The notes: generated from the letters alone by a model not told the origin. Positions 2,011-53,279 are shown, counted from the stretch's first letter. The stretch: DNA of 64,000 nucleotides from a virus (IMGVR_UViG_3300036859_000864:47462-111461); one strand, 5' to 3'. A program made the numbers and translations.

Positions 2011-2237
2011 CGACCGATGAGAAAATGAAGATGAACGTCGAGACGACGATTTGGATCGTGGGGATCCTAATCATCGTAGGGCTGCTTGCCGTCGTGTATT
2101 TTTGGGGCAAGGGCCTTCGCAATGGGACGTGCACCGAGATGTGCCGCCCTGCGCAGTTCGACTCAGGTCAAGATGTGAACGGCGGTTGTCTTTGCATCGG
2201 TAGCGACAAGGTTCTTCGCATCAGGCCGGCGCCGTGA
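2007..2237 (+). CDS. small membrane protein with Cys-rich C-terminus
   Basis: N-terminal hydrophobic helix; ATGA overlap. Confidence 0.55.
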   Translation: MTTDEKMKMNVETTIWIVGILIIVGLLAVVYFWGKGLRNGTCTEMCRPAQFDSGQDVNGGCLCIGSDKVLRIRPAP

Positions 2238-2412
2238 CGACCGAAGAGCGATGGGAGCGTGAGAGGCGTGCGCGTGTTCGCGCTCGTGCTCGAGATACGA
2301 GTCGTGAGTTTCACGTCGTGTTGAACGTGTGGCTTCAAGAATCGCACCTATCCGGTGACAGTCGGATCCCATCTGAGAATTATTTAGGGCCGCCTAAGCG
2401 CAAGGGACACCA

Positions 2413-2634
2413 GTGATGTGGAATCCGATCACCGAGATGATCATTCAACTCGTACAGGTTGAAGAGGGGCTAGATCGGTTGCAGAAGATCGTCGATGAGT
2501 CCTCAGCGCCGAAGTCGGCGGAGTTGTTGAGCGCGCTGCTCGAGGCGACCGCGCATCTGTTGAAGATGGGTCGAACGGTCGAGGCGACCTTTACCGCGAC
2601 GGTGTGGGTCGAGCTCATTCGAAGGGCGAAATGA
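2413..2634 (+). CDS. hypothetical protein
   Basis: Coupled ORF in tightly packed operon. Confidence 0.45.
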   Translation: MMWNPITEMIIQLVQVEEGLDRLQKIVDESSAPKSAELLSALLEATAHLLKMGRTVEATFTATVWVELIRRAK

Positions 2635-2984
2635 ACTACCTGCTCTCCGAAGTCGAGGAGCCCATCTTCCAAGCGCTCGAACGTCTCGTCGCGAAAGACA
2701 TCGGGCTCCGACCGTTCGTCCACGTGTCGAAGGTCGGGCGCCCCGACGTCTTCGTTCAATTTGCGCGGCTGGTCCGGAACGGCGTTCTCTGTTTCGACGT
2801 GCCGAAACTCGAAATCGTGCTGGCTCCGACGACGCCTGCGGATGGGGCTAAACGCGCGGTAGTAGTGCTTTACATGGATCTGGGGGTGAGCATGGACGAG
2901 CGTGTTCTCATCCGCGAAGAGGAGGGTGGCTCGGGCGGCAAAGGCATTCCTTTTTGGAAGAGACCGTGGCTGCGCCCCGCGTGA
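2631..2984 (+). CDS. hypothetical protein
   Basis: ATGA overlap with upstream gene; protein-like composition. Confidence 0.5.
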   Translation: MNYLLSEVEEPIFQALERLVAKDIGLRPFVHVSKVGRPDVFVQFARLVRNGVLCFDVPKLEIVLAPTTPADGAKRAVVVLYMDLGVSMDERVLIREEEGGSGGKGIPFWKRPWLRPA

Positions 2985-3023
2985 GTTGACTTTTGACTAC
3001 GGTTGTAATACCTCCAAAAGACG

Positions 3024-3302
3024 ATGGCAGCCAAAGACGAGAAGGCGAAAGAGCGCTGGGTCGGCTGGACGCGCGATGCGATGACCGCGTACACGGAGCC
3101 GGACGACATCAAAGATCTCGACGATCTCGTCGACGACATGGTGGACACCTCGGTCGCGTACGCCAACGCGATGGCCGAGGAGTTCGATCATCTGTTCGAG
3201 AACGCCGGCGCTCGAAAGCGTCGGGGTAAGGGGAAGGGTCGGAGCCGTAGATCCGAGCCGGACCCGGACGATGACGACGACGATGACGACGATGACGACT
3301 GA
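3024..3302 (+). CDS. acidic protein with basic patch and poly-Asp tail
   Basis: ARKRRGKGKGRSRR followed by a poly-Asp run. Confidence 0.6.
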   Translation: MAAKDEKAKERWVGWTRDAMTAYTEPDDIKDLDDLVDDMVDTSVAYANAMAEEFDHLFENAGARKRRGKGKGRSRRSEPDPDDDDDDDDDDD

Positions 3303-3441
3303 GACGCCGTCGGGGGCTTTTCTCGCCCTCACGCTCTTGCTGCTCGTGCTGGTGGGTCTCCCGACGGCCTACACGGTCGTAGTGCTGTTCGGACTGAATA
3401 AGCGGTCCGAGCAGGCGGACGAAGACAAGAAGGAGTGAGTC

Positions 3442-3588
3442 ATGGCATCCAAGAAGAAAAAGAAGTCCTCGAAGAAGAAGGCGCCTGCGAAGGCCGCCAA
3501 GGGGTCCTCGAAGAAGAAGTGCACCGTGTGCCGCAAGCCCGGCCACAACGCGCGCAGTCACAGGGCCGGTTCCAAGAAAGCTCTGTGA
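3442..3588 (+). CDS. 48-aa Lys-rich protein with zinc knuckle (C-x2-C-x4-H-x4-H)
   Basis: Below ORF-track cutoff; AAGGAG RBS upstream; MASKKKKKSSKKKAPAKAAKGSSKKKCTVCRKPGHNARSHRAGSKKAL. Confidence 0.75.
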   Translation: MASKKKKKSSKKKAPAKAAKGSSKKKCTVCRKPGHNARSHRAGSKKAL

Positions 3589-6568: not shown

Positions 6569-7194
6569 TGAATCCCTACGTCGTCGATCAAGAGGGTCAC
6601 GGGTCCGGAAGCGTTCAACGCGAATCCGAAGATCTGGACGTCTTTCGGAGCGAATCCTGGGGTTGATGGGGCGTCGAAATCGAACTCGAAGCACGTCCAG
6701 TCCCCTGGCGTGAGAGTGATGTCGCGATCGGCTCCGTAGTCGTTTCCGTTCGACACGTAGGCGAGCACGTTGAGGGGACCGCCAGCCTCGAGCTTGAGCC
6801 ACACGGAGCCCCGGCGGCCTTGGAGGTCTCCTAGACTCTCTGGGAGCACGAGCCATCCGTGTGGCGCGTCTGGCGTCTCAAATCGAACGGCCCCGTCGGC
6901 GGCGTGTCCCTCCGGGCTCCAGGTCGCCGTTTCGAGGTAGGGTGGTCGGTACTCCCACTGCTCGAGGCTCTGATCGAAACCCCAGTGCCTCACCAGCCGT
7001 TCTCCGGAGCAGCCGAGCGCGGGCCCGGAGGGCGTGGTGCCGGCGTCTACGCCGCCCTCGCTCGGCGCCCCGCCATCTGGCATCGAGACGCCCCCCTCGG
7101 GCGCGGAGAGCTCGGCTTCGAGCCCCATCGGGTAGTAGCCGATACGCCCGCAACCGAGGGCGAGAAAGGCGGTCAAGAGGCTCATGCGGGGCAT
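6565..7194 (-). CDS. lipoprotein with carbohydrate-binding-like beta-sandwich domain
   Basis: Lipobox-like FLALGC, xEGG/DGG/DAG linker, Trp-rich beta domain ending LLIDDV. Confidence 0.55.
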   Translation of the reverse strand: MPRMSLLTAFLALGCGRIGYYPMGLEAELSAPEGGVSMPDGGAPSEGGVDAGTTPSGPALGCSGERLVRHWGFDQSLEQWEYRPPYLETATWSPEGHAADGAVRFETPDAPHGWLVLPESLGDLQGRRGSVWLKLEAGGPLNVLAYVSNGNDYGADRDITLTPGDWTCFEFDFDAPSTPGFAPKDVQIFGFALNASGPVTLLIDDVGIQ

Positions 7195-7199
7195 CGTGT

Positions 7200-7475
7200 T
7201 CAGTTTTCTCCTACCGGCTCGCATCGATCGGCGAACCAGCCGCACGATCCTACGCACCGGTAGTTGAACCACTTCCCTGCTATTTCGGTGGGCCCCGCTT
7301 GCCGTTGGTCGAGGGTTCGAGTGAGTTTCGAGCCGCACTTCGGGCAGACGCCGGCGTCGATCTTCGCGTCCTCGGCCTTCATGTCGCGAATCACGTCGTC
7401 GGCTTCGGCTTCGGATACCCCACCGGCAAGAAGACCGGCTCGGTAGTTGTCGTACTTGTCTTTGATCGCAGCCAT
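7200..7475 (-). CDS. Zn-ribbon protein
   Basis: CPKCG...C...CG; TGATG coupling. Confidence 0.55.
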   Translation of the reverse strand: MAAIKDKYDNYRAGLLAGGVSEAEADDVIRDMKAEDAKIDAGVCPKCGSKLTRTLDQRQAGPTEIAGKWFNYRCVGSCGWFADRCEPVGEN

Positions 7476-7936
7476 CAACCGACCTCGAGCTCGGCGGGGA
7501 GCCCGATCTCCGGATCGTCGCGCACCTCGGGGAGCTTCTCGCCTCCGATTATCGGCACCCCACCCATTTGGATGCGCTGTACGACCCAGTATAGGATCCC
7601 CATCTTCTTGAGCCCGTGCTTCTTGCGCTCGCGGAGGTAGCGATCCATCCCTTCGCCGTCGACGACGCGCTTGTCGTTCGCCATTTTGCCCACCTCGCGG
7701 AGCACGACGATCACCGCTCCAGGGCACTCCTGTGCCTTTGCGCCGGTCTTCGCGCCGACTGCGACGTGATCCGGATGCGACGGGTCGGTCAGGTGGCAAG
7801 ATTGCGGCTGCCCGCCCCCTCGAATCTGGTTCCAGAGACGGCGCAGGTTCGATTTCTTGTAGAAGCCGAACTTGTGAGGCTTGCCGTGGTTCGATTTGCG
7901 CCACGGGCACTGCGCGCACGGAGTCGTTTTGCTCAT
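7475..7936 (-). CDS. DUF6283-like Cys-rich phage protein
   Basis: PCAQCPWR...SCH...ECPGA. Confidence 0.55.
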   Translation of the reverse strand: MSKTTPCAQCPWRKSNHGKPHKFGFYKKSNLRRLWNQIRGGGQPQSCHLTDPSHPDHVAVGAKTGAKAQECPGAVIVVLREVGKMANDKRVVDGEGMDRYLRERKKHGLKKMGILYWVVQRIQMGGVPIIGGEKLPEVRDDPEIGLPAELEVG

Positions 7937-17642: not shown

Positions 17643-18011
17643 ATGCCCGACGTACTGCACAGTGAGACCTGCGTTTGCGGCGGCAACAACTGGCACATGA
17701 TGGTGGACCGCGTGATCTGGTGTCGCAGATGCGGGTGTCTGCGCCTCGTCTTCGAGAAGCTCTGGAAGGTGCCTCTGGATCAAGCAGGCGCGTTGCCGGC
17801 GGCAGCCTACGTCGTCAACGAGCGTGAAGATCCGCCGACGCTGCCAGGAACGCCTCACGCTTTGAAGACCTCGAGCCGCACTGACGTGGTGGCAGTACAG
17901 TCGCGCGAGTTCACGGCTCCCGGCGGGTTCAAGCCCCCGTCCGTGCCGCTCGTTCGAATGACTCCTACGCCTACGATCCCGCTTCCGGGGAAGAAGAACG
18001 ATCCGCGTTAG
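17643..18011 (+). CDS. Zn-ribbon protein with Pro-rich tail
   Basis: CVCGG...CRRCG; GGGGGA RBS. Confidence 0.5.
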   Translation: MPDVLHSETCVCGGNNWHMMVDRVIWCRRCGCLRLVFEKLWKVPLDQAGALPAAAYVVNEREDPPTLPGTPHALKTSSRTDVVAVQSREFTAPGGFKPPSVPLVRMTPTPTIPLPGKKNDPR

Positions 18012-18706
18012 ACGGCTGGAACGGAGAGCGAGCTCATCGTCTCGAGGAACCGTTGCCCCTCACGAATCACGTGCTCGGCGAGCACCGGATGAATGACGGA
18101 CTTCCCACTCGAGGCCGATACCGGCTGCGTGCGAAAATACGTGTCGAGGCGTGTGCCGGCCTTGAGACCGAGATTGATGTAGTCCTGCGTGAGCGCGTGG
18201 CATCCGCCTTTCAGATTGTAGAATTCGCTGACGATCCCTTGGGCGTCGGCGACGAGAGAGGTCGCAGAAGGATCGAGGAGATGCGCGGCGAACTCGGCGT
18301 GCTCACGCATGAACGTGATGTTCTGACAGTACGTGAGCTCGGCCGGAAGGCCGCCCTCCCAAACACGCGCGACGAAGTAGATGAGCTCACGCAGCGTGTG
18401 ATCGATGAACAACGGGAAGAGCCATCCCATCCACTTGCCGGATTTTTGGAGATCGAGCACTTCTTGCGTGAAGGAGGCCAGGTTCTTCGTAGGCTCCGAA
18501 ACGATCGCCTTCGCCGCGTCGAGACCTTGCGACTTCGTGAGCCACGCCCGTGCGTGCTCCCAGTTCTCGTGGAGCGCAGCGGCTCGAGTCTTGTACGGTT
18601 CGACCTCCAATCCGAGGTTCAAGAACAGCGCGTGCTCGGAGAGCTGGCGCGACCAAAATATGATGTCTCCTAGCGGATCCAATGACGGCATGGGTCTCCT
18701 ACTCAA
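18008..18706 (-). CDS. DUF2935-like four-helix (ferritin-like) protein
   Basis: Two repeats: FWSRQLSEHALFL...DHTLRE and FMREHAEF..HLLDP...LAEHVIRE. Confidence 0.75.
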   Translation of the reverse strand: MSRRPMPSLDPLGDIIFWSRQLSEHALFLNLGLEVEPYKTRAAALHENWEHARAWLTKSQGLDAAKAIVSEPTKNLASFTQEVLDLQKSGKWMGWLFPLFIDHTLRELIYFVARVWEGGLPAELTYCQNITFMREHAEFAAHLLDPSATSLVADAQGIVSEFYNLKGGCHALTQDYINLGLKAGTRLDTYFRTQPVSASSGKSVIHPVLAEHVIREGQRFLETMSSLSVPAV

Positions 18707-19127
18707 GCCCGACCACGACGATGGCCGGGAACTCTGTCGCCTTCAAGTTGTAGAGCGCGACGAAGCGGTGGGCCCCCTCGATGATGAAGGGCCCCTTCTC
18801 GTCGACGCCGATGATCAGCGGGTTGATCTCTCGAGATTCTTCGATCGCGCCAGAGAGCCGCTCGCTTCGCGCGAAGTCGTCGGCGGCGTAGAACACGGAT
18901 CTCGGGCCGCCGAAGTCGGACATCGGTACGACGCGCACACCGGGGAGCGTTTCCGACTCGGCCATGTACCCGTCGATCGAGCTGAGGTTCGGTACGTGAT
19001 CTCGAACCGTCAGGCCGCCGACGACGTCGCCGGCGACCGGGTACCGCGCGCTTGTGCTCGCGATCAGGCCCTCGAGCGACGAGTCGGCGAGCGCGAGTGG
19101 CGCCGCGCCGACCCTGCGGCTTTTGGG
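18699..19127 (-). CDS. ParB/Srx-like domain, probably expressed as a -1 frameshift extension of 19064..20422
   Basis: INPLII.....FIIEGAHRFVAL; frame stays open and coding-like (YPVAGDVVGGLTVRDHVPNLSSI) upstream of ATG 18965 with no ATG/GTG/TTG start. Confidence 0.6.
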   Translation of the reverse strand, partial: PKSRRVGAAPLALADSSLEGLIASTSARYPVAGDVVGGLTVRDHVPNLSSIDGYMAESETLPGVRVVPMSDFGGPRSVFYAADDFARSERLSGAIEESREINPLIIGVDEKGPFIIEGAHRFVALYNLKATEFPAIVVVGLE

Positions 19128-20422
19128 TGGCGACGACTCGACTCGTGCACGCCGGTACCGTTCCTAGCCGCTGCGACGCGCTCGGCGATCTCTCGGTCGC
19201 GGGCGCGTGTGAAGTTGCCTGTCCAGGCCGCCCAAGGGCGCCCCTGAGGCTTGAAGATGTCTACTTGCAACACCGAGTTGCCGGGCTCCCCGGGATGGTG
19301 GACGACCCAAGTTTCGGTCGATGCGTTCAACGTCTTGCTGGGAACGCCAACCCTCAATCGTCGCGCCTCCAAGCCGCCGTCGATGGTGAGCGTCGTCGGT
19401 CCGGAGGCGGGCGCGCCACGACGCGCTTCGCTCGCATGTGACGCAACGTCAGGCACGATTTTCACAGTGTACCCGCGTCCGGTCAGTTCGACTGCGATCT
19501 TGTCCGCTTTCTCGCGCGGGTACGATCGACGGTTCAGCCATCGGATCGGTTGGCCGGTGTCGACGTTGATGATCTTGAACAATGATCCTCTACGAGGCGC
19601 AGCGACCACACCTCGACGCGCTTCGCCGACGCCCCCGCCGCGCATCTCCTGTTTGATCTGCAAGAGCTCGTCCGCGAGCCAATCGCGCGTCTTCGGATCT
19701 TGCAAGGCGCCTTTGAAACCGATCCAAAACTCACGCACCGTCTCGCGTCCGCCTGTCGCCGTCCCGGGCCCGAAAACGCCCCCAGCCAGATCGAGGATGT
19801 CGTTATCGCCGAGGCCCCGCTCCGTGTCCCACACGAGCTGTTGAAGCATGTTTTTCGCGATCACCGTCGCGTCTGACTTCGTCTCGAGCGGGAGCATCTG
19901 AGACGGATCCGCGCGTTCTGCTTCGAGCATCTGCTCGCGGACCCAGTCCATGAAGTATCCGCCTTGGAGTTGATCGTTGGCGTACTGCTCACCGGCGGCT
20001 TCGGCGTTGGGGGCGTCGCCCGTCTCACGTGCGGTCGGAACTCTACGTTTGATCGGCACAGTCGACTCGCCGTAGTAGCGAAACGTCTTTCGCCCCCCAC
20101 CGATATCCACTTCGACGTTACGGTATCCGCGTTGGTCGCTATCGGACACAGAGACTACGGTAGCTTCTCCGGATTTGTCGTAGATGACGTCTCCGACGCG
20201 AAGATCATCCACGTAAATATGCTGATCTCGGCGGCGATCTCTCTTCGCGTTTTCTCGTGTTGTCTTTCGAGTCATCGTGCTCTCCTTCTCGTGTCCTTGG
20301 TAGCCGTGTGAGTAGGCCGCCCGTCCTTGCTTCTCGGCCTTCTGGCGTGCGCCGGGGCCGCAGTAAACCTTCCCGTGGGAGCCCCACTGGTAGCAACCGC
20401 GGCCTCTAGAGTGGACGGGCAT
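19064..20422 (-). CDS. modular multi-domain protein with Arg-rich linkers
   Basis: N-terminal YQWG..GK.Y.G..A..KA..QG module, SH3-like module and further small domains separated by TARE, VGEARRGVVAAPRR, ASEARR, VHESSRR. Confidence 0.75.
   Translation of the reverse strand: MPVHSRGRGCYQWGSHGKVYCGPGARQKAEKQGRAAYSHGYQGHEKESTMTRKTTRENAKRDRRRDQHIYVDDLRVGDVIYDKSGEATVVSVSDSDQRGYRNVEVDIGGGRKTFRYYGESTVPIKRRVPTARETGDAPNAEAAGEQYANDQLQGGYFMDWVREQMLEAERADPSQMLPLETKSDATVIAKNMLQQLVWDTERGLGDNDILDLAGGVFGPGTATGGRETVREFWIGFKGALQDPKTRDWLADELLQIKQEMRGGGVGEARRGVVAAPRRGSLFKIINVDTGQPIRWLNRRSYPREKADKIAVELTGRGYTVKIVPDVASHASEARRGAPASGPTTLTIDGGLEARRLRVGVPSKTLNASTETWVVHHPGEPGNSVLQVDIFKPQGRPWAAWTGNFTRARDREIAERVAAARNGTGVHESSRRHPKAAGSARRHSRSPTRRSRA
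19081..19127 (-). other. candidate -1 programmed ribosomal frameshift signal
   Basis: In-frame C_CCA_AAA heptamer (19127-19121), 6-nt spacer, 9-bp stem GGGUCGGCG/CGCCGACUC. Confidence 0.6.
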
Positions 20423-20426
20423 AGTC

Positions 20427-21563
20427 CTACCGTCTTCGTGTCGATCGTCGAGCGTTCGGATTGTGCGCGCTGCGCGTCGGGCGCGGTGCCTCGTCCATGC
20501 GCGCGCCTTTGATGCGCGAGCCGCGCGGGTAAAAACCCGCGTTCTTGCCGCGGGCGAGGTCGGTCTGCGCCCGCTCGATTGTCGGAGCCGTGATGTGCGA
20601 GATCACCCGACCGTCTGGGTTCACGACCTCGAACTGTTTCCCGTGCCCCGATTCGCGCGCTCTAGGAGGCGCCTGACGGCCGCCGGAGGGCACGAAACGA
20701 ACGACCCCCCGAACTCGCTCGGCCTCGGTCTTCGCGTCCCCGTAGCTCTTGAACGGGCCGGCGATGACGCGGTTGTGGTTGTCGAGGGCCTCGTAGTCTC
20801 GGACGGCATGGCGCCGAGGGGCTCCTCGCCGGGCTTCGGTGTCTCCAGGGAGGTACATGGCGTTCCGAGGAAGCTGGGCGATGATGCTGCGCGCACCAGG
20901 CCCCTGCGCGTGCCAGTAGCCTTCTTTTTGCCAGACGGTGGCCACGTAGTATCCGTTGTCCGGACACGGGAAGTAGATCCGCGTGTTGGCACCGGCGCCC
21001 GATACATGCGTGGCGCCGTCGACGGTGGCCGCATGCTCGATGAGATCTTGGAGCGTGCCGAAGTCAGAGACACGGTGAGTACGCGACGCTGAACGGCGCG
21101 GGGCTGCGACGACGCCACGGCGCCGACTCTCGCCCACGTGCGCGTCCAGAGGCGACCCGTAGATGAGTGTCTCACCGTCCTCGTCCGGATCGCCGACGTA
21201 CAGATCGAACTCGCCGTACTCGTGGGCGCCGTCTGTCAGCTTGGTCGCGTCCGGCTCGGGCCAGTCGCCGTCCCAAAAGCCGGCGCCGGCGCCGTTGCGC
21301 GTCAGCCAGAAGTCATGACCGGCTAGCTCGAGGTTGCCTCCGATGAGCTCTCCGAAACGCTCTTGGAAGGAAGCACAGTCGGCGATCATCTTGTCGCGTG
21401 TCGCGTCGTCGATGTCTCCGACGTCGTAGTTCTTGTCGAGCGGCTCGCCCCCCTGATCGTCCGAGTTGTCCGAGCTCGCCCAGAGGGCCGTTTCGAAGTA
21501 CGCGCGGGTGAAAGAATCCATGCGCTGGGGCGCACGGGCGGTGTGTCGTCTGCGAGCGGCCAT
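20427..21563 (-). CDS. modular multi-domain protein with Arg-rich linkers
   Basis: Acidic domain with AGHDFWLTRNGAGAGFWD motif (seen in phage hypotheticals), then small domains separated by VGESRRRGVVAAPRR, TEARRGAPRR, ARES, MDEAPR. Confidence 0.75.
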   Translation of the reverse strand: MAARRRHTARAPQRMDSFTRAYFETALWASSDNSDDQGGEPLDKNYDVGDIDDATRDKMIADCASFQERFGELIGGNLELAGHDFWLTRNGAGAGFWDGDWPEPDATKLTDGAHEYGEFDLYVGDPDEDGETLIYGSPLDAHVGESRRRGVVAAPRRSASRTHRVSDFGTLQDLIEHAATVDGATHVSGAGANTRIYFPCPDNGYYVATVWQKEGYWHAQGPGARSIIAQLPRNAMYLPGDTEARRGAPRRHAVRDYEALDNHNRVIAGPFKSYGDAKTEAERVRGVVRFVPSGGRQAPPRARESGHGKQFEVVNPDGRVISHITAPTIERAQTDLARGKNAGFYPRGSRIKGARMDEAPRPTRSAHNPNARRSTRRR

Positions 21564-22228
21564 TAGCGTCTCCTCTTGGAGGTTCTGAGCGCAGTTTTCC
21601 TACGCGCGATGCGCTTGCTTCGTTGCGCGTCGGTTTGGGTCAACCGATCGATGTACGACTTGGCGACGATGATCGCCTTCGTTTCAGTGCCGCCGTATCC
21701 GACCTGTTCGGCTTCGACGCCGGTAGCTCCGTTTTCGGATTCGTACGGGCTGTAGACGACGGCGGCGAAGTACCCCTTCTCGCCCTGATGGGGGCGTTCT
21801 TTGGGAGGTACTGGATCGTGATAGACCTCGAATTTGATACCCTTGTACTCACCCGTGTGTTGAAGCGATGCCTTCGGACCGAGCGCGCCGGTGACGAGCG
21901 TCGGAAGACTGGGGGCTTCCTCCTCTTCTTCGCTCATCAAACCGCGAACGAGCTCCTCGACATCTTGCTTGTCTTGGATGGCGGCGATCATGCGTCCGAG
22001 CTGGTCGAGTTCGTGCCACCCGATGCCCCCCAAAGGCTCGAAGCCCATGTCCTCGAGCTCCTCGCCGCCGGGCACGCTTGCGAGAAGTCGGAACACCGTC
22101 GTCGGGTAGTCGTTCGGACCGTGGTCGTAGTTCGGGAGCCACGACCTGAGCTCCGCGATCATGTCGGCGATCGGGGGGCGGGGTTTCGAGGTGTTCGCGT
22201 GCATTCTTCTTCGGGTTGCCATGGTCAT
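21563..22228 (-). CDS. two-domain protein with basic termini
   Basis: AAGGAGA RBS; start 22228 or 22222 (MATRRRMHAN...); basic C-tail. Confidence 0.65.
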   Translation of the reverse strand: MTMATRRRMHANTSKPRPPIADMIAELRSWLPNYDHGPNDYPTTVFRLLASVPGGEELEDMGFEPLGGIGWHELDQLGRMIAAIQDKQDVEELVRGLMSEEEEEAPSLPTLVTGALGPKASLQHTGEYKGIKFEVYHDPVPPKERPHQGEKGYFAAVVYSPYESENGATGVEAEQVGYGGTETKAIIVAKSYIDRLTQTDAQRSKRIARRKTALRTSKRRR

Positions 22229-23766
22229 CGTCTCCTTCGCGGGCTGCGCCGCTCTTGCATTCCGTCTTCGGGCCTCGAGCTCCACACGAGTTCACCGTCG
22301 CGTGTGATTACCGTCACGTAGTCCCCTTCGAACGTCGGGTCTCGGAGCAACTTCTGCGCGGCGCGGATTGCTGCTTGCTCATCGTTCAACGAGAACGTTT
22401 CGCCACCACCGCCGCCCAAACCTCCGACGATGGTTCCGTCGCTGTACGCCCCCTGCACGACGTAGTCGCCATCGTCGACATGGGCGTTCGAATCTTTCTT
22501 ACCCCAAATGGAGGCGTAACCGCTCGTTGAGCTCGCGATCTCATCGTTGCGGTCTTTCGGCCACCAGTCGATGCCCTGAGCGGCTTCCTTGACCGTTTCG
22601 ATCGGCAACTCCATATCGTGCGCTACGGCACGGATGGCGGAGTCGGGGCTGACGTGTTCTTCGGTGGTCGGTACCCTACCCCCGAGATCGGTCAGCTCGT
22701 AGCCGTCCTTCTCGAGGTCGGCCTCTACGCCGGACTCGGTTCGCTCGCTCTCCAGATCACCGTTGACGGCCACGGCGTCTCCGAACGAAGCGACACCGAC
22801 GAGCGAATCTGAATCGAAGCCATCTCGAGCGGCGTCGTCCGCGTGCTGATCGCCGATCGTGCTCCACGTCTGCGCAGCGCCGATGTCGGCCATTTCCTCG
22901 ACTTTCTTTTCGAGGTTGCTTCGGATGTCGCTGTACCCTAGGACGTCGTCCTTGAACGATTCGTCTTCGTCTGCGAGGTACTCGCGGAGTGTTGCGGTCG
23001 CGCCGCTCGACCACTTCACTTCGTGATCGGGAAGATCTCCAGACCAGCCGGAAGGCCCCTCGTCGACACCAGTGCCGTAGTCCATGAGCGCGCTCGCGAT
23101 CGTGAGCGCGCGCTGAGTTGGTGTGAGATCCTCGAGCTGGTTGTGATCCATCCCGATGAAGCTCATGACGTTCGAGATGTTCTCCTTGTTCGTGAGATCG
23201 TCGAGATCGTAGTACGCCTCGCGGGTCCAAAACGGGAAGCCGGCTTCGGCCGCTTCCGTGTCGCCGACGTACTCACGCACCGGTTGGATCTTGAAGAGCT
23301 CGAGGGCTCTGCCGTCGCTCTTGGCGATGGTGCCGCCGTGCGCACCGGGATCCATGTCGCCGTCGATCTGCTCCCACATCGGCATGTCCGGGATCTGAAT
23401 TTCCAGCTTCCCGGGGATGTCAGGGAAGCCCGGCAGGCTCGGTTGGTGGCGGCTCCTCACCCTCCGTCCTTTTCCACGCTCGTGCATCTCCCCGCCGCTC
23501 GCCGCACCCTCGTCCGGGCGCGAGAACCGCTCGAGGTGCCCCGCGTCGGCCGTGAACGGATCGGCCGTCCTCGAGCGCCCGCGTCCCGTCGAGCCCGGAG
23601 GCCAGATGCGGATCGAGCGCGCCTTGGCCTCGTAGCTGTACGGCGTGCCGCTTCCGGGGCGCAGCATGGTCGGCCGTTGATCCATCGGTGCCTGGTAGTA
23701 GAGCGGGCCTCCCGTGCGCGCGTACGCGAGAACTTCAGGCCACGACTTGAAGGCTACAAGGTTCAT
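22225..23766 (-). CDS. modular acidic multi-domain protein
   Basis: 513 aa; domains bounded by EMHERGKGRR and GMQERRSPRRRR. Confidence 0.75.
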   Translation of the reverse strand: MNLVAFKSWPEVLAYARTGGPLYYQAPMDQRPTMLRPGSGTPYSYEAKARSIRIWPPGSTGRGRSRTADPFTADAGHLERFSRPDEGAASGGEMHERGKGRRVRSRHQPSLPGFPDIPGKLEIQIPDMPMWEQIDGDMDPGAHGGTIAKSDGRALELFKIQPVREYVGDTEAAEAGFPFWTREAYYDLDDLTNKENISNVMSFIGMDHNQLEDLTPTQRALTIASALMDYGTGVDEGPSGWSGDLPDHEVKWSSGATATLREYLADEDESFKDDVLGYSDIRSNLEKKVEEMADIGAAQTWSTIGDQHADDAARDGFDSDSLVGVASFGDAVAVNGDLESERTESGVEADLEKDGYELTDLGGRVPTTEEHVSPDSAIRAVAHDMELPIETVKEAAQGIDWWPKDRNDEIASSTSGYASIWGKKDSNAHVDDGDYVVQGAYSDGTIVGGLGGGGGETFSLNDEQAAIRAAQKLLRDPTFEGDYVTVITRDGELVWSSRPEDGMQERRSPRRRR

Positions 23767-24491
23767 CAGTTGTCTCTCCAGTAAACGAACCCGGACGGGG
23801 TCGTGTAGTAGTTGCTGTCGTAGCGCGCGAGGAAGTGCTCGGCGCCGTCTGTGTCGACGGCCTCCTCGGCCGCCGCTTCGATGTCGATGCCGGCGATCTC
23901 GATGGCCTTCGCGGCGGCCTCGTCACCGTAGATCTCTTCGAGATACTCGAGCGGGTCGTTGAGACGCTCTTCGGCGATCTTCGAGGCGACGTCGTCGATG
24001 TAGTCCTCGGGGTCGGGCATCTCGCCCTCGCTGTCTTCCTCGGGGATGCTGTCGAGGTAGCGCTCCGCCGTCTGCCAGAATTGACGGCTGGACATCTCGC
24101 GAAGATCGTCCTCCGCCATACTCTGCACGTCAGACTTGAGCTCTCGACGCAAGCGATCCTTGTCGATGTGGTTCTCGATGAAGTCCTTGTTGAAGTTCCC
24201 GGGCTCTTCTTCGAGATCTTGCGTGACAACTTCGATGGCCAGCTCGTACATCTTGTCGTGACTTTCCACGACATGCCATTCCTTGCCGCCCGTACGATCG
24301 CCTCGAAAATAAATTCGGTAGGCGGTGCCGTCGAAATCTCCGAAACCTGTAAGCTGAGTGCTCTCTTCGATTTTCAAATCGTACGGGTCGATGTCAAGGT
24401 GCTTCGCCACCTCGATGAGCACCGCGTCTTGATCGTCGAAGTCGACCTTGCGCGGGCGCCGCTTCGCTGCCTTTTTCTTTCGGGTAGCCAT
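23766..24491 (-). CDS. highly acidic protein (possible DNA mimic/anti-restriction) with basic N-terminal tag
   Basis: MATRKKKAAKRRPRK followed by D/E-rich body ending DG.EHFLARYD...GFVYWR. Confidence 0.6.
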   Translation of the reverse strand: MATRKKKAAKRRPRKVDFDDQDAVLIEVAKHLDIDPYDLKIEESTQLTGFGDFDGTAYRIYFRGDRTGGKEWHVVESHDKMYELAIEVVTQDLEEEPGNFNKDFIENHIDKDRLRRELKSDVQSMAEDDLREMSSRQFWQTAERYLDSIPEEDSEGEMPDPEDYIDDVASKIAEERLNDPLEYLEEIYGDEAAAKAIEIAGIDIEAAAEEAVDTDGAEHFLARYDSNYYTTPSGFVYWRDN

Positions 24492-24492
24492 C

Positions 24493-24921
24493 TCAGTCGT
24501 CCTCCTCTTCGAACTCGTCTTCGTCTTCATCGTCGTCATCGTCATCCTCATCGTCGTCGTCGACGTCCTCGAACTCAGATTCGATTTCCTTCCACGCCGC
24601 TTCGGCTTTCGTCTTGCCGTCGAATCCGGTGAACCAGTCGGCCTCAACGATGCCATCTTCACGTTCGCAGAGAATCACCACCGAGGTGTCATCGAGCAGA
24701 GCGCCCTCCGCGCCGGTGAGCTGATCCTTCTCCTCTTTCGCGATCTCGTTGATGCGATCGACGACGTCAGGAGTGATTTCTACGAAACCGTACCAGCCGT
24801 CACCTTCGGAGCCTTCCTCCCGATCGGCGCCGCCATCGAGCGTCAACTCGTAGACGTAGCTGTCGATGATTTTGATGAACTTGCCGGGCCCGTACGAACG
24901 AATTCCTGTTTTGATCGGCAT
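24493..24921 (-). CDS. acidic protein with poly-D/E tail
   Basis: TGATG coupling at 24921; GPGKF...DGWYG. Confidence 0.6.
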   Translation of the reverse strand: MPIKTGIRSYGPGKFIKIIDSYVYELTLDGGADREEGSEGDGWYGFVEITPDVVDRINEIAKEEKDQLTGAEGALLDDTSVVILCEREDGIVEADWFTGFDGKTKAEAAWKEIESEFEDVDDDDEDDDDDDEDEDEFEEEDD

Positions 24922-25304
24922 CACTTTCTCCATTCGATCCAAGCTCGATCGATCTCGAGCGGTAACTGTTCGGTGGATACGCCCACCGTCTTGAGAACTC
25001 CCCGTAGAACGCCCCACTCTTGATCGATGATTTCGTCAAGATACTCGTCTTCCGAGTCGCTCTCGATAGCCCCTACGCCGGCGCTCGTGAGCGTCTGAGG
25101 GACTCCTTCGATGGCAACCTCGGCCTCGGCGTAGACGCGCATGAAGTCGAACTCATCGCGCTCGTAGGCGGCAAGGCCGTCCTCGTTCAAGTACGAGGTG
25201 TCCGGGCTCGAGTCCGGCGTGAAGATCACGCGCACGGCGCGCAGCTCCGCACGTGGCCTGCGTGAGGCAGCCTCGACGACGCGGCGTCGCGGGGGAGAGC
25301 TCAT
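24921..25304 (-). CDS. acidic protein with Arg-rich N-terminal tag
   Basis: MSSPPRRRVVEAASRRPR then acidic domain. Confidence 0.6.
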   Translation of the reverse strand: MSSPPRRRVVEAASRRPRAELRAVRVIFTPDSSPDTSYLNEDGLAAYERDEFDFMRVYAEAEVAIEGVPQTLTSAGVGAIESDSEDEYLDEIIDQEWGVLRGVLKTVGVSTEQLPLEIDRAWIEWRK

Positions 25305-46931: not shown

Positions 46932-47311
46932 AATTCGTTCCTAGACACGCGCAGATCATCGGTCGCTTGGTTATCAAACCGCAGTCATCGACGATCATCA
47001 TGGGGGATCCGACGAAGGTCACAAAATTCCTCTTGGTGGACGCTGTCGGTGAAGGCGCCTCGAAGTCGGGGATCAAAGTCGGCGACTTGGTCGTGCCGAA
47101 AGCGTTGGCCCAGATCGTATTGGAGTCGGGCACTCGGTTCTGTCCGTATCTCGAAGAGAAGGACGTGGCGTTCTTCGTTCGAGGCGCGAACTTGAACGAC
47201 CTGCACGTGCAGACAGACTCCGCCGCCAAATACGTGCCGTTCGGTTCGCCGGAAGCTGCGGAACCGATCGGGGCGCAAGACGACCTCGAGCAAGCACAGG
47301 CGGCAGAATGA
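46928..47311 (+). CDS. GroES-like co-chaperonin
   Basis: MKFVP.H..I......S.II.......V.AVGEG....IKVGDLVV...L.EKDV..FV follows the Cpn10 pattern; GAGGAG RBS. Confidence 0.65.
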   Translation: MKFVPRHAQIIGRLVIKPQSSTIIMGDPTKVTKFLLVDAVGEGASKSGIKVGDLVVPKALAQIVLESGTRFCPYLEEKDVAFFVRGANLNDLHVQTDSAAKYVPFGSPEAAEPIGAQDDLEQAQAAE

Positions 47312-47982
47312 CGTACGGGGCTCGCGAGATCATTCGGCGCCAACGCGCCAACGACTGTGCGTGCAAAGCGCCTGCACGCGCGCCTTCTCATGTGCGTGAG
47401 GGCGGCGGTCGGATCTTGCGCCCGCGCGCGTTCATGCGCGAAGAGGTTTCCGAGCGCGGCAAGGTTCATCGTCCTCGCGGTGTCGAGCCTGTCGTCATCG
47501 CCGGCGCGCCCGGCTCGAAGTGTCGACCTTTCCTCAAGGTCGAGAAGGACGCTGAGAAGTTCGCGGCGTGCAACGCGCTCGCCGAGGAGCTCGGGCCACT
47601 CAACACGCCGAAGAAGATGTACAGAATCATCGAAGATGCCATCGGTGACGAGGTCAACGAGGTCTTCGGTGTCCTGATGCTCGACATGCACTTGAGGCTC
47701 AAAGGTCTCGCCGAGACCGGGCGCGGGGAACCCTCGAGCGTGATGGCGCCGTTGAAGCCGACACTTCAGATGGCGCTGATCAGCGGAGCGGATTCGATCA
47801 TCTTGTGGCACGTGCACCCCTCTGGGATCGAAGCCGAGCCCAGTGAGGCGGACAAGGAGACCACAGAGGCGTTCGCCGAAGCGTGCGATGCGATCGAGCT
47901 GCCACTTCTCGACCACCTGATCATCGGCGGAGACATCCGAAGACGCAGCTACTTCTCGTTTGCAGAAGACGGTTTGCTGTAA
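47308..47982 (+). CDS. JAB/MPN domain (RadC-like) protein with low-complexity N-terminal extension
   Basis: E.F.VL.LD, A.SIILWHVHPSG...PS.AD...T..F..A...I.L.LLDHLII. Confidence 0.9.
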   Translation: MTYGAREIIRRQRANDCACKAPARAPSHVREGGGRILRPRAFMREEVSERGKVHRPRGVEPVVIAGAPGSKCRPFLKVEKDAEKFAACNALAEELGPLNTPKKMYRIIEDAIGDEVNEVFGVLMLDMHLRLKGLAETGRGEPSSVMAPLKPTLQMALISGADSIILWHVHPSGIEAEPSEADKETTEAFAEACDAIELPLLDHLIIGGDIRRRSYFSFAEDGLL

Positions 47983-48058
47983 GCCGTCGTCCTCTCTCTT
48001 TCGTTCTAGGCGAGCTCGCTCGCCCCAATTCTCTTTTCACATGGAGGCTCGCCCCCGT

Positions 48059-48565
48059 ATGACCGTACCTGCCAACGGTGCTCAACCGACCGTCATAGAA
48101 CTCCCGAAACCGGAGTTCCCCATGCTCATGCGCGTGATCTCGAACGCGCTGTTCCCCGCCGCTCAGACGATAGGGTGCCCGCACTGCTCGAAGCCCATTT
48201 CGATTCCGGAGCTTGGAAAGACCGATCAAGATCCCGTCACTTGGGTTTTCGGTGAGGCGCACCCGCTCACGCCAGACATGCGCATTATTCGAATGTTCAT
48301 CAAAGGTGACGGCATCGAAATCTACTCGGTGCCCGGCGACACCTCCAAAAAGGGTGGCGTGTGCACGCGCAATCTCATTCCGATGTCCTCGGTACGCTTC
48401 ACCGAAGAAGCGATGCCGATCAACGTCTTCGTCGAAGAGCTGATCGATGCCTCCGAAGATGATGACGACGACGACGGTGACGATGACGACGACAACGACG
48501 ATCCGGAGGCGGAGCCTGCCGAAGGTGGGACTGCGCCCACGACGGACGGCTCCTCTGTGTCTTGA
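48059..48565 (+). CDS. protein with CPHC insert and acidic tail
   Basis: GGAGG RBS; poly-D tail. Confidence 0.55.
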   Translation: MTVPANGAQPTVIELPKPEFPMLMRVISNALFPAAQTIGCPHCSKPISIPELGKTDQDPVTWVFGEAHPLTPDMRIIRMFIKGDGIEIYSVPGDTSKKGGVCTRNLIPMSSVRFTEEAMPINVFVEELIDASEDDDDDDGDDDDDNDDPEAEPAEGGTAPTTDGSSVS

Positions 48566-48582
48566 AAGAAGGGCTCGTAAGA

Positions 48583-50442
48583 ATGACTCGTCGTGGATCG
48601 CGCGATCAGAATCGAAGCGAACGGGTCGCGCCCGTCGGCACGCCTGCTCAAGAAGATGAAGCGGACATCTTGGCCGAGGTGGGCGGTGAGCGTGACGAAA
48701 ACGGTCAGCTCATAGCCGACGAGGAATCGGTGCGCGCGATAGGTGCGATCGACGCGGAGAGCGTGCGCACGAACCGACGGATGAAAGACGTCGTGGACAA
48801 GAAGCGCGGAGGGATGAAGGGCGTCACGTTCAACACGGACGATCTGCTCGCGTCGTACGAGGCGCTGATCAAGCAGTGGCCTCCGAACACCCTCGACATC
48901 ACCGTCAGGCGCATGACAGGCACGCAGGTGACACGAACGATCACCAGCCGTCCCCGGTCCGGTGTCGAGCTCTACGAAGCGATCAAGCTGATCCACGGTC
49001 AGTACGAGGAAGCCGAGTACGAGGTCAAGTGCCTGGACACCAACCAGAAGCAGTACCGCGGCACCGGTCGAATCATCATGCCGGACACGCGCGCCGTGCC
49101 CCCACAAGGACAGCCGATGCAAACCTTCTACCCGAACGGAGCGCCTATACCTCCGGGTTACCCTCCGCAACCGGCGCCTGCTTTCTACCCACCGACGCCC
49201 GGTTATCCACCGCCTCCCGGCTACGCAGCGCCTCCGTCACCTCCGGCGCAGGGCCAACAGCCGCCTCCGCAGCAACAGCAACAGCCGTTCCCGCAGCAGT
49301 CGGCAGCGCCGCCGCAAGTGCCTACCGTACAAGTCATGCCGTCGCAGTTCGATCCGGGATCGATGATGACGATCATGGATCAGTTGTTTCAGATGTTCCA
49401 ACGGTTGCAGGCGTCGGCACAACCGCCACCGCAACCGCCGCCTCAGTACCCGCCACAGTACGCACCCCCGCCTTTGGCGACTTCGATGCCGCCGCCTCCT
49501 TCGGCGCAGGCCAGTCCCGCCGAGATGTTCGAGTGGATTCAAAGGGCGTTCGGGATGTTTCAGTCGATGACACAGCAGCCGCAGCAACAGCAGCCTGCGC
49601 AAGCGCCGGTCGTTTATCGGGAGCCGCCGGTACCGCCGCCGGCGCAACAGACCGCGCCTGCGGGTCCGACGAAGCCGCCGCCGCGCGGCTACATTTGGGG
49701 TTGGTTCCCCGAGCACGCCGCGTTCGCGCTCGTGCCTGAAACGACCGGTGGGGGCTCGGAGCAGGCCCCGGGCCCGTTCCGGCGCCCGGCGTACATGCCG
49801 CAAGGAGATCAAGGCGCCAGAACGCCCTACACGGGGCCGCAGCACCAACAACAGCAGCACGCGCAACATCCGCCGCCGCCCTCTCGTCCGAAAACGCCTC
49901 GAGAGCAGTTTCAAGAGTCCATAGGGTTCGTGCGCGAAGCTGCGAGCGCGGTCGAAGAGATGCAATCCTTGCTGCCCGGCTTCGGTGGAGGGGGGCAGCA
50001 AGAGGTCGCTGAACAGCCGGACGACGACGACAACCCGATCAAGATCATCGACACCGGCAAAGGACGCATCGCTATCAACAAGAGCGACGGCGCCCTGCGT
50101 TGGGCCGAGACGGGCATGATGGTGCTTCCCGACGTGCTCAAGTGGCTCGGCGAGCAGCATCAGACTATTCAAAAAGCTGCCGAACGGCGACAGCAGCAAC
50201 AACAGCAGCAACAGCCGCGACAACTCGCACCCGGCTACGTCGAAGTGACGCCCGGGTATCAGCCGCCGCCTGGGTTCACGGCCGTTCCGGTCGATCAAGA
50301 TCAACCTCAGCAGCAGCAACAGTCTCCGCTTCCGCCACCGCCGGCGCACGTGCCCCCGCCGATTCAAACTTCGGCGGAGCCTCCCGCAGGACGAACGTGG
50401 GGCACGCCAACGATCCCCGAGTTCGATCAAGGAGAGAACTGA
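48583..50442 (+). CDS. large Pro/Gln-rich low-complexity protein
   Basis: Globular N-terminus followed by long P/Q tracts with short amphipathic M/F helices. Confidence 0.75.
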   Translation: MTRRGSRDQNRSERVAPVGTPAQEDEADILAEVGGERDENGQLIADEESVRAIGAIDAESVRTNRRMKDVVDKKRGGMKGVTFNTDDLLASYEALIKQWPPNTLDITVRRMTGTQVTRTITSRPRSGVELYEAIKLIHGQYEEAEYEVKCLDTNQKQYRGTGRIIMPDTRAVPPQGQPMQTFYPNGAPIPPGYPPQPAPAFYPPTPGYPPPPGYAAPPSPPAQGQQPPPQQQQQPFPQQSAAPPQVPTVQVMPSQFDPGSMMTIMDQLFQMFQRLQASAQPPPQPPPQYPPQYAPPPLATSMPPPPSAQASPAEMFEWIQRAFGMFQSMTQQPQQQQPAQAPVVYREPPVPPPAQQTAPAGPTKPPPRGYIWGWFPEHAAFALVPETTGGGSEQAPGPFRRPAYMPQGDQGARTPYTGPQHQQQQHAQHPPPPSRPKTPREQFQESIGFVREAASAVEEMQSLLPGFGGGGQQEVAEQPDDDDNPIKIIDTGKGRIAINKSDGALRWAETGMMVLPDVLKWLGEQHQTIQKAAERRQQQQQQQQPRQLAPGYVEVTPGYQPPPGFTAVPVDQDQPQQQQQSPLPPPPAHVPPPIQTSAEPPAGRTWGTPTIPEFDQGEN

Positions 50443-51134: not shown

Positions 51135-52379
51135 GTGCACACACACGTCGTTCAGGCCGGTGAGAGCCCCTCGTCGATTGCGATCAACTACGTGGGGTGC
51201 CCCAAATGCTCGCGGGATTTGATCGAAGCGAACCCGCACAAGCCTGCCGTGGTGCACCCGAACGGCTACATTTCCTTCAAAGACCTGCGTGAGGGCGAAA
51301 AGCTCAAGCTGCCCGGCAAGTGGTTTGACGGGAGTCTCGACTCTCGCCCGACCGCGTACTTCGCAGCACTGCCGTACCATGACGGGGTGACGCCTGGCAA
51401 ATTCGGAGTCGGCGCCCCCAACGTGCTCAACGACTACGCCGCGCTCGACGCCGCCGGCGTGAAAGTCGGGGCACTCGCCGCTTTGGGTGATCAAGCGTTC
51501 GCTGCCGCCGTGAACGGCGCTGCCGACGCCGTCGACGTGTCGGTGCGTGAGATAGGTGAGGGGACGACGACGCCTACGGTGTACGCCGCTCCGTACGCGC
51601 GAGATGCACGCACGGCTACGGCCAAGGCGCGGCAGTACAACGCCACGGTGCTCGATGCGGCTATCGCGGCCGGGGATGCTCAAGAAGCATTTCAAGCGCG
51701 CACAGAAATTCTGAAAAACCTCTCGAGCGCGCTCGGGTCTGCGCGTTTGGCGCTCCAAGCGTTCTACGGAGACGCGGGCGACGGGGGTGCGCCTCAGCCT
51801 GTAGCGCCGGCGCCTCAACCGACTCCGGAAATTCAGGTCGACATCGGCCCGGCTACGATCGATCCGACGCTCACATCGCCGGCAGTCGTCACCGCTGCGG
51901 CACAAGCTGCGGTTTCCGCTATGGGCGCGGACGCCAACTACTGCACGTCGGTCGCGCGACCCGGCAGTGCTGTCAACTCAGCAGTGCATGCTTTCAAAAC
52001 AGCCTGGAACGCGGCAAATCCGAACAATCCGGTCCCGATTGGCACCAGCACCTACGAGCAAGCGACGGCCGACGCGATCATGCGCGCGGTTGGACACGCG
52101 CCCGTCGCGTGCGGGGCGAGTGCTGTTCCGAGTGCATCGCCGGGCGCAACGCCTACCGCCCCCTCGCTCGTGGCGCCTGAACCGAGCAAAGGGATCGGTG
52201 TCGCCGGTATCTTGGGTCTCGGATTGCTCGGCGCCGGCGCTGTTGGGGGCGTGATCTACTACGCCACCAGCAAACCTGTCGCGCCTCGCCGACGAGTGCG
52301 ACGAGTCAGCCCCGGCCCTCGTCGACGACCCGTGCAGCGCGACACCATCGGCCCTTGGAAGAAAGACCCCAACTCGTGA
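51135..52379 (+). CDS. LysM-like, tail-anchored membrane protein
   Basis: HVVQAGESPSSIA...LIEANP...L.EGEKLKLP; C-terminal TM + Arg-rich tail. Confidence 0.7.
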   Translation: MHTHVVQAGESPSSIAINYVGCPKCSRDLIEANPHKPAVVHPNGYISFKDLREGEKLKLPGKWFDGSLDSRPTAYFAALPYHDGVTPGKFGVGAPNVLNDYAALDAAGVKVGALAALGDQAFAAAVNGAADAVDVSVREIGEGTTTPTVYAAPYARDARTATAKARQYNATVLDAAIAAGDAQEAFQARTEILKNLSSALGSARLALQAFYGDAGDGGAPQPVAPAPQPTPEIQVDIGPATIDPTLTSPAVVTAAAQAAVSAMGADANYCTSVARPGSAVNSAVHAFKTAWNAANPNNPVPIGTSTYEQATADAIMRAVGHAPVACGASAVPSASPGATPTAPSLVAPEPSKGIGVAGILGLGLLGAGAVGGVIYYATSKPVAPRRRVRRVSPGPRRRPVQRDTIGPWKKDPNS

Positions 52380-53032
52380 TCGAAAAACCTGTAGAGGGCG
52401 TGCAGACAGACGCGAGACCGCATCCGCCTGGCGGCAAGGGCGCGCGATTGTCTTTACAAGAGGTGGCCGATCGCTCGTGGAAGGCGCGCATGAGCCCGCG
52501 TCTTCGTTCGTGGGTCACGAAAGTGCTCGACAAGGCCGGCGTGTCGAACGGAGGCCGTCGACAGAAGGCGCAGGCCATCCTCAAAGCTTTCCGAGAGAAG
52601 GTGCCTTACATCGCCGATCCGTTGATGGGCGAGTTCATGGCGACGCCCGACCAGGTGTTGTGCCTCGACGAGGGCGGTCTTTGCATCATCGGAGGAGACT
52701 GCGACGAGCACGCGATCACGCTCGCCGCTGCGATGATGACGATCGGCATCCCGGCCATGATCATCGGCGCCAGCTACCACGATCCGATCGATGTCCCGAC
52801 GCACGTGTACATGGCGTTCGAAGACGATCTCAAAGATTGGGTGCGCATGGACGGCACGACCAAACAGCATCCTGTCGGCCGCGTGTCTCCGAGCAGGAAA
52901 GAGTTCTGGGTAGAGCCCGGTGCGGCAGCGAAAGAGAACGGGAACGGCGACTTCGTAGGCATGAGCGGAGCTCCGGGAATGCTCGCCGCGCCTACGAGCG
53001 TGCTCGATCTGGTCTACCCGGGACTACGTTAG
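52376..53032 (+). CDS. transglutaminase-like cysteine protease (intact Cys-His-Asp triad)
   Basis: Y..DP...E....P; GDCDEH, THVY, WVRMDGT. Confidence 0.85.
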   Translation: MIEKPVEGVQTDARPHPPGGKGARLSLQEVADRSWKARMSPRLRSWVTKVLDKAGVSNGGRRQKAQAILKAFREKVPYIADPLMGEFMATPDQVLCLDEGGLCIIGGDCDEHAITLAAAMMTIGIPAMIIGASYHDPIDVPTHVYMAFEDDLKDWVRMDGTTKQHPVGRVSPSRKEFWVEPGAAAKENGNGDFVGMSGAPGMLAAPTSVLDLVYPGLR

Positions 53033-53279
53033 TAATACGTACGTAGTCTGTTCGTAATACATCGGACGACTATTTTCGATCTCGAACGTGCTCTGATTTG
53101 CCGGCAGAGGGCTCTTACACCGACCGCACGTAACCTGCCGTTCCGATTGGCGTTTCAATCGAACGTGAGATCGACGGGCGTAGAGAGATCGTTCCTGTAA
53201 CCACGACTGCGGCTCACCGCAATGCGTGTATTCCTGGACGCATCGATCTCTTGTTGCGATCTTAGAGGGGCACAGTGAC

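Follow-up and report, generated by a model that had tools for sequence, protein, structure and literature searches.

Small shuffled domains bounded by a peptide shared with the Arg-rich core protein in an operon of a large, likely tailless bacterial virus

A 64,000-nucleotide stretch of viral DNA (IMGVR_UViG_3300036859_000864:47462-111461; the window hereafter), which forms the last 64 kb of a complete virus record of 111,461 bp with direct terminal repeats, carries an operon of eight tightly coupled minus-strand genes, H through A (window 18699-25304), whose small domains ('beads') are bounded by recurring short basic peptides. This boundary element is sequence-specific, disordered and conserved at the peptide level, and is common to the shuffled accessory domains of the operon and to a DNA-condensing, Arg-rich core protein encoded beside the capsid candidate. 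There is an even chance that the operon encodes clade-specific, polyvalent-like accessory proteins in which the peptides are functional tags of the core type, tying the beads to the viral DNA and core. An earlier note, made from the sequence alone, had read the products as virion-internal cargo polyproteins recruited by a basic tag and cut after Glu. The non-random motif, the disordered linkers, the shuffling and the vocabulary common to the core protein bear out one part of that reading, and searches for S77, adenain and MPTase proteases gave no match.

The boundary peptides are of three kinds: (G)-[VAM]-x-E-[AS]-R-R, which stands right behind a domain; R-R-(G)-V-V-A-A-P-R-R, which stands before one; and R-R-P-K-A-K-R-S-x-R-R-R-R, which is strictly C-terminal. 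All the peptides quoted in the earlier note for the operon genes were recovered in the minus-strand translations of those genes, and the weaker examples, M-H-E-R-G and R-A-R-E-S-G, fit a looser variant of the motif. Expected counts were obtained from 200 within-protein shuffles, separately for the eight operon proteins, the core protein and the 154 other proteins of the genome. E[AS]RR was observed six times in the operon proteins versus 0.26 expected, a count reached in 0 of 200 shuffles, and three times versus 2.5 in the 154 others, which amounts to no enrichment. Likewise, AP[RK]R was found three times in the operon (0.12 expected), four times in the core protein (0.2 expected) and three times elsewhere (2.2 expected). 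The enrichment of [AVM]xE[AST], proposed previously as a check, is present in the operon (16 versus 7.5, reached in 2 of 200 shuffles) and absent elsewhere (78 versus 84). A basic C-terminal tail ends only 14 of the 163 proteins of this genome. As the note had remarked, the two copies of G-V-V-A-A-P-R-R (window 19586-19630 and 21084-21143) are written in different codons; seven of the eight differ, and it is therefore the peptide, not the DNA, that is conserved. On the same ground, DNA-level repeats were rejected as the origin of the peptides.

The location of the motifs was examined in an AlphaFold2 model of B (452 aa; window 19064-20422, minus strand), built from a 31-row alignment with a mean predicted local distance difference test score (pLDDT) of 76. 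Five folded domains (residues 1-43, 69-117, 135-264, 280-326 and 339-426) are separated by disordered linkers (window 20219-20293, 20021-20071, 19586-19630 and 19409-19444) and followed by a disordered tail (19067-19144). The segments with pLDDT below 50 (residues 44-68, 118-134, 267-279, 327-338 and 427-452) all coincide with motif-bearing stretches. The expectation that the motifs lie in disordered inter-domain linkers thus agrees with every low-confidence segment of B but not with one E-A-R-R (residues 352-355), which lies within a confidently folded strand of domain 5 and is part of the fold. Foldseek with the whole B model as query returned nothing at E ≤ 0.001; single domains were not searched.

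Domain shuffling around a conserved linker, which had been anticipated for related genomes, is indeed seen, with gene boundaries replacing linkers. The relatives form a clade, undescribed so far, that is defined via the capsid candidate (45-87% identity) and counts at least 31 IMG/VR contigs, with lengths of up to 125 kb. In the closest relative (L002/L059), C is present as two genes split exactly at the first linker, and the first half retains G-E-G-R-R-G-V-V-R-A-P-R followed by a different small domain. B of the same relative is without two beads, and a single E-A-R-R stands there for the E-A-R-R, bead B4, E-A-R-R of the window. In relatives, stop/start junctions stand for linkers, cassettes are inserted exactly between two E-A-R-R copies, and E2 and E3 are found either as genes of their own or in fusion with other beads. 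A search with B yielded 31 mosaic proteins on contigs of 70-130 kb, in which the beads of B, C and E follow one another in many orders. Mapping of the beads on 82 non-redundant family proteins gave counts of 40 for B3, 21 for C2, 15 for C3 and 10 each for E3 and B1; B1 is always N-terminal, and B3, C2, C3, E3, B5 and B2 vary widely in order and in partners. Of the mosaic breakpoints, 24% are no more than 10 aa away from a motif, versus 10.7 ± 1.5% for random placement. The basic tail ends 42 of the 82 proteins, and all 17 occurrences of P-K-A-[KR]-R lie within the last 22 residues.

The same features recur in an independent set. A profile-free search of 1.8 billion representatives with B3 gave 208 clusters, in which the position of B3 is variable; the set consists of 137 of the cluster representatives, none of them used earlier and all with less than 50% mutual identity. 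E[AS]RR occurs 60 times in these proteins versus 7.0 ± 2.8 expected, and [AVM]xE[AST] 272 times versus 146 ± 11. A basic C-terminal tail is carried by 79 (58%; 3.7 expected), and of 20 P-K-A-x-R sites, 19 are situated within the final 20 aa. The motif follows B3 at a fixed distance of about 12-15 aa, beyond which the sequences are unrelated. Pfam matched only five of the 137, and almost no bead has a functional PHROG assignment; rare MarR (winged helix-turn-helix, wHTH) and GNAT beads are found in relatives. In C and H, linkers and tails roughly match the domains in conservation (80% versus 81% identity in C, 100% versus 76% in H). The H orthologue in L059 has an arm identical at 19 of 19 residues, next to the domain with 76%, and the orthologue in L060 reads R-R-R-V-V-A-A-P-A-R.

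The core protein (window 53226-54845, plus strand) consists of an Arg-rich half of V-x-E-[AS]-R-R-R and [AV]-A-A-P-[KR]-R-R-R units, with 45% Arg+Lys in the basic region, and then membrane helices. The earlier note had described a protamine-like protein with the operon vocabulary; the words that it quoted do occur in this protein, whereas window 52355-53032, which it had paired (as 52376-53032) with the operon for co-expression, encodes a transglutaminase-like enzyme and not a basic protein. Of 31 relatives, 27 have the core gene next to that of the capsid, and the orthologues of 21 relatives are tandem arrays of V-x-E-[AS]-R-R-R-R and [AV]-A-A-P-[KR]-R-R-R-R units. The linkers and tails of the operon are therefore, in effect, single core-protein units. 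Around the 224 Glu residues in the basic regions of the core orthologues, position -2 is A/V/T/M in 71% and position +1 is A/T/S in 65%; Arg, at a background of 28%, is outside the six commonest residues at +1. The Glu:Asp ratio is 193:21 in the core basic regions and 60:4 in the linker motif, versus about 1.1:1 overall.

H (127 aa; window 24921-25304) begins with the basic arm P-P-R-R-R-V-V-E-A-A-S-R-R-P-R, followed by an acidic domain, and its stop overlaps the ATG start of G (142 aa; 24493-24921), an acidic protein with a poly-Asp/Glu tail and without basic tag, which has an orthologue in L060. Long poly-Asp/Glu tails end two proteins, G and the product of window 47960-48565 at the head of the morphogenesis block, which could serve the Arg-rich tags and the core protein as acidic chaperones or scaffolds. 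F (241 aa; 23766-24491) has the N-terminal arm M-A-T-R-K-K-K and then an acidic domain. E (513 aa; 22225-23766) consists of E1, a linker (approximately 23437-23496), E2, E3 and a basic tail (22228-22266), and D (219 aa; 21563-22222) of an arm M-A-T-R-R-R, a single domain and a basic C-terminal tail. C (378 aa; 20427-21563) has four beads, C1 (phrog_1915), C2, C3 and C4, with linkers at 21084-21143, 20808-20849 and 20625-20663 and a tail at 20430-20489. The starts of D (22222), F (24491) and G (24921) were revised from longest-open-reading-frame calls to an ATG that lies directly behind the upstream stop or overlaps it, in each case preceded by an AGGAGA/GGAGA site. The searches of A-H against Pfam and PHROGs gave only C1 (phrog_1915/20867) and a weak ParB match for A, and Pfam found no peptidase in B-H. 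PDB sequence searches with B and with C gave no match, the ESM Atlas had no usable match for bead E2, and a tblastn search of phages with bead B1 yielded two weak matches, both to hypothetical proteins. A DUF2935 protein (window 18008-18706; E 1.5e-21), conserved in a relative, continues the operon.

The last gene, A, is a ParB-N-like bead (window 18699-19160, minus strand; annotated open reading frame 18699-18965) with a weak match to phrog_620 (E 0.008). Its frame is open for 154 codons without a start and overlaps the tail of B in the -1 frame (minus strand, window 19060-19170 region). Upstream of the annotated ATG, to about 19160, it is closely similar to a 334-aa protein of a relative; in P0030, B1 is fused to the ParB-like domain of A. 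Were the ribosome to slip by -1 at C-CCA-AAA-G within the tail of B, it would read H-P-K-S-R-R-V-G-A-A-P, a canonical linker into the ParB-like bead; the 0 frame gives a tail-like ending. The junction may reflect programmed frameshifting, a frameshift mutation of recent date or an indel of the assembly, and the choice between 'tail' and 'next bead' may be made by a -1 frameshift at the end of B.

A mechanism can be proposed from these features. Small autonomous domains, each bounded by short disordered peptides, would be swapped as cassettes among related viruses; nucleic-acid-binding tags of the core type would hold them on the viral DNA and core, and the beads would accompany the genome. The invariant Glu may be a processing site, at which the beads would be freed and the core protein chopped into short basic peptides, with the transglutaminase-like protein as the candidate enzyme. 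Processing at this Glu is put forward tentatively and is somewhat improbable. The preference for Glu over Asp fits a residue-specific site, for example the P1 position of a protease, and DNA binding alone hardly explains a single invariant Glu in a polycationic peptide, its context and the avoidance of Asp. Stand-alone beads start with M-A-[TA]-R-R-R, and removal of the Met would mimic the N-terminus left by a cut E|A-R-R; they also carry a tail that cutting would remove. Because of these two properties, the end products would be the same whether the beads are made fused or split.

The candidate enzyme (window 52355-53032, plus strand) is assigned to the transglutaminase-like, papain-fold proteins by Pfam PF01841 (E 1.1e-6, above the cut-off), and a PDB sequence search with it gave no match. 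Nineteen orthologues, the most divergent at 35% identity, all retain its Cys116, His150 and Asp166, and in 26 of 31 relatives the gene is a neighbour of the core and capsid genes. The complete genome has no match to the S77 prohead protease PF03420 at E ≤ 1 (S80 was not searched separately), and none to adenain (PF00770, Peptidase_C5) or to MPTase (PF18818). The Cys-His-Asp enzyme is the only protease candidate found, and its activity may be that of a protease, a cross-linker or an amidase. A Gln/Pro-rich protein of 626 aa (window 48562-50442) is encoded just upstream of the LysM and transglutaminase-like genes and is a possible transglutaminase substrate.

Several observations weigh against packaging and cleavage of the operon proteins. 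No protease family of known Glu specificity was found in the genome by the S77, adenain and MPTase searches, and the transglutaminase-like enzyme could instead cross-link the Gln/Pro-rich protein, an alternative raised because the two genes adjoin, or act on the cell wall. The bias around Glu may be partly structural, as Glu followed by Ala and Arg favours helix starts. Strict E-[ASTG]-[RPK] is present in only 13 of 39 short inter-bead gaps, versus 7.0 ± 2.3 expected. The distant relative G005 (IMGVR contig of L109, 79.6 kb; capsid 45% identical) keeps the transglutaminase-like gene and a Glu-punctuated basic core protein, and it lacks both linker-motif enrichment and tagged bead proteins. Two of the tails serve in part as the Shine-Dalgarno site for the gene that follows; an origin of the basic tails as Shine-Dalgarno by-products was rejected, since AGGAGA covers no more than two Arg codons of the D and E tails and cannot explain the conserved R-P-K-A-K-R-S or the internal linkers. 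The operon adjoins replication genes (helicase, methylase), about 26 kb from the capsid module. Bead C1 (window 21144-21530) has homologues in 45 tailed phages, where they are stand-alone proteins of about 125 aa, at sites such as the terminal repeats of giant Caulobacter phages and the right ends of Gordonia phages; judged by these positions, it is an early-region, non-structural type of gene there. Packaging, cleavage and injection of the operon proteins are hypothetical.

The main rival explanation, itself unlikely, is that the operon products are polyvalent accessory proteins made early and neither packaged nor cut, in which the Arg-rich arms, linkers and tails serve to fasten domains with anti-host or replication-helper roles to DNA or RNA in the infected cell. 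The likeness to the core protein would then arise only through the nucleic-acid binding of both. This explanation agrees with the replication- or early-type region in which the operon lies, with the terminal sites of C1 homologues, which are typical of early genes, with the wHTH (MarR), GNAT and ParB-like domains among the beads, and with the failure of the three family searches to recognise a dedicated protease. However, it does not explain why a DNA-binding peptide should hold a single Glu, preferred 9-15:1 over Asp, why the tail should be sequence-specific and strictly C-terminal, or why fused and split bead forms should interchange freely.

It is improbable that the linkers are neutral, compositionally biased spacers, whose likeness would stem from the copying of flanks along with cassettes and from the bias of a GC-rich genome towards Arg, Ala, Pro and Gly. 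The GC content of the sequence is indeed about 62%, the two E-A-R-R sites of B have 11 identical bases, enough for short-homology recombination, and linker identity in B is below domain identity (54% versus 80%). Against this explanation stand the lack of enrichment in the rest of the same proteome, the codon differences between the two long copies, the persistence of the enrichment in the 137 representatives of low mutual identity, the position-specific tail motif (19 of 20 C-terminal) and the strong preference for Glu over Asp. In type IV secretion, coupling proteins of the VirD4 type recognise their substrates by Arg-rich C-termini. By analogy, the basic tail might be a translocation signal by which a HerA/FtsK-type packaging ATPase pumps the proteins into the procapsid; such an ATPase with a weak TrwB_AAD_bind match is encoded and the tail is strictly C-terminal and conserved, but the proposal is analogy alone, folded beads would have to unfold or traverse the DNA channel, and similar peptides stand in internal linkers without a free C-terminus, so that it is very improbable.

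The tag reading could be extended to a complete cargo system in a membrane-containing, non-tailed bacterial virus, comparable to the internal proteins of T4 and phiKZ and to core maturation in adenovirus. Core-like Arg-rich tags would load swappable effectors onto the condensed genome, a virion cysteine protease of transglutaminase fold would cut behind the Glu of [VAM]-x-E-[AS], releasing the effectors and reducing the core protein to short protamine-like peptides, and the effectors would enter the cell with the DNA. That this whole scheme operates is doubtful.

The genome encodes a HerA/FtsK-type ATPase, a family-A DNA polymerase, an integrase, ThyX and a VapE-like protein, and further a RecD-like helicase, an SNF2 helicase and a Dam methylase. 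The ATPase (326 aa; L112:14700-15680 in genome coordinates, minus strand), with DUF87, AAA_10 and the weak TrwB_AAD_bind match, is likely the packaging ATPase of a non-tailed virus, and profile searches of the genome gave no match to the HK97 capsid (PF05065) or the terminase (PF03237). The virus is therefore likely tailless. LysM, peptidoglycan-binding and sigma-factor genes point to a bacterial host; a scan of GTDB genome contigs with bead B3 found no relative, and so no host is assigned. The morphogenesis block runs in the order LysM membrane protein, transglutaminase-like enzyme, Arg-rich core protein and capsid candidate, and a RadC-like JAB-domain protein (window 47308-47982; phrog_10276, E 2e-25) lies directly upstream. 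The capsid candidate, a beta-rich protein of 441 aa (54991-56316) next to the core protein gene, gave a poor AlphaFold2 model (pLDDT 55). The best VIA matches of the model (Z 4.5-6.0) are capsid proteins of SPV1, HHIV-2, HCIV-1, PRD1 (P3), P23-77 and FLiP, with generic beta-sandwiches intermixed, and its language-model neighbours are jelly-roll coat proteins (0.80-0.85); the fold may be called jelly-roll-like at most. In another part of the genome, three otherwise unrelated virion-type proteins (L112:1360-2106 and 2135-3580, plus strand; 7010-7576, minus strand) have a common N-terminal I-G-K-G-R-Y-A-x-x-T-Y-P-E, which in two of the three runs on into E-A-P-R, the same as in the M-D-E-A-P-R of the C tail.

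The closest concept to the operon proteins is the polyvalent protein (Iyer et al., 2017; PMC5512222). In phages and mobile elements, such proteins combine 2-15 distinct domains per polypeptide with extensive mosaicism, and were proposed to accompany the invading DNA, perhaps being processed into separate units (PMC5512222). The operon proteins are similar in that they are multi-domain polypeptides (five folded domains in B; several beads in C and E by homology blocks) with mosaic architectures among relatives. Of the signature conflict domains (DdrB-like ParB, ArdC-N, methylase, SNF2), the operon has the weak ParB-like match of A. They differ in that no MPTase or zincin peptidase was found (Pfam on B-H; PF18818 in the genome), that the beads are small and almost all without known family, that the virus is apparently not tailed, and that a sequence-specific linker and tail are conserved, a feature absent from the description of polyvalent proteins (PMC5512222).

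Further likenesses concern processing. Head proteases of T4, phiKZ and SPN3US cut A/S/G/L-x-E sites C-terminally to Glu, with A-X-E in SPN3US (PMC5694885). In T4 (internal proteins with their capsid targeting sequence, CTS, and gp21) and in phiKZ and SPN3US (inner-body or ejection proteins with gp175 and gp245), short tags target cargo to the capsid interior and core proteins are chopped to small peptides. The x-x-E sites resemble [AVTM]-x-E-[AST] here, and the context of the motif and the bias of Glu over Asp would be compatible with such cleavage. Unlike in these phages, however, no S77-type protease, HK97 capsid or terminase was detected in the genome, and the T4 CTS is N-terminal and scaffold-binding, whereas the tags here are basic, internal or C-terminal, and common to a protamine-like core protein.

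In adenovirus, the core precursors pVII and pX/mu are cut by adenain, and African swine fever virus (ASFV) has the polyproteins pp220 and pp62. Both systems resemble the present one in a non-tailed capsid lineage, an FtsK/HerA-type ATPase, Arg-rich DNA-condensing precursors and a cysteine protease in the morphogenesis module, for which there is here a candidate enzyme; the Arg-rich core protein is likewise encoded in the morphogenesis module. The differences are that there is no adenain match, that the putative site is Glu-based, not Gly-Gly, that the candidate enzyme has a predicted transglutaminase/papain fold and that the host is bacterial. Membership in the T4/phiKZ or adenain systems fails on both protease and capsid, and the resemblance is functional only.

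Should the tags have the proposed function, no scheme of cargo loading and maturation would have been described earlier for a large bacterial virus without a tail. Bacterial members of the capsid lineage would be linked to the core-protein processing of adenovirus and ASFV, and the system would have converged with the processing at Glu seen in T4 and phiKZ. Whatever the mechanism, the operon belongs to a mosaic-protein family of more than 200 clusters in which bead boundaries are marked by a recognisable peptide. The boundary peptide gives a simple rule to excise dozens of small domains for expression, structures and anti-defence screens, and the portable tail and linker are a possible packaging tag.

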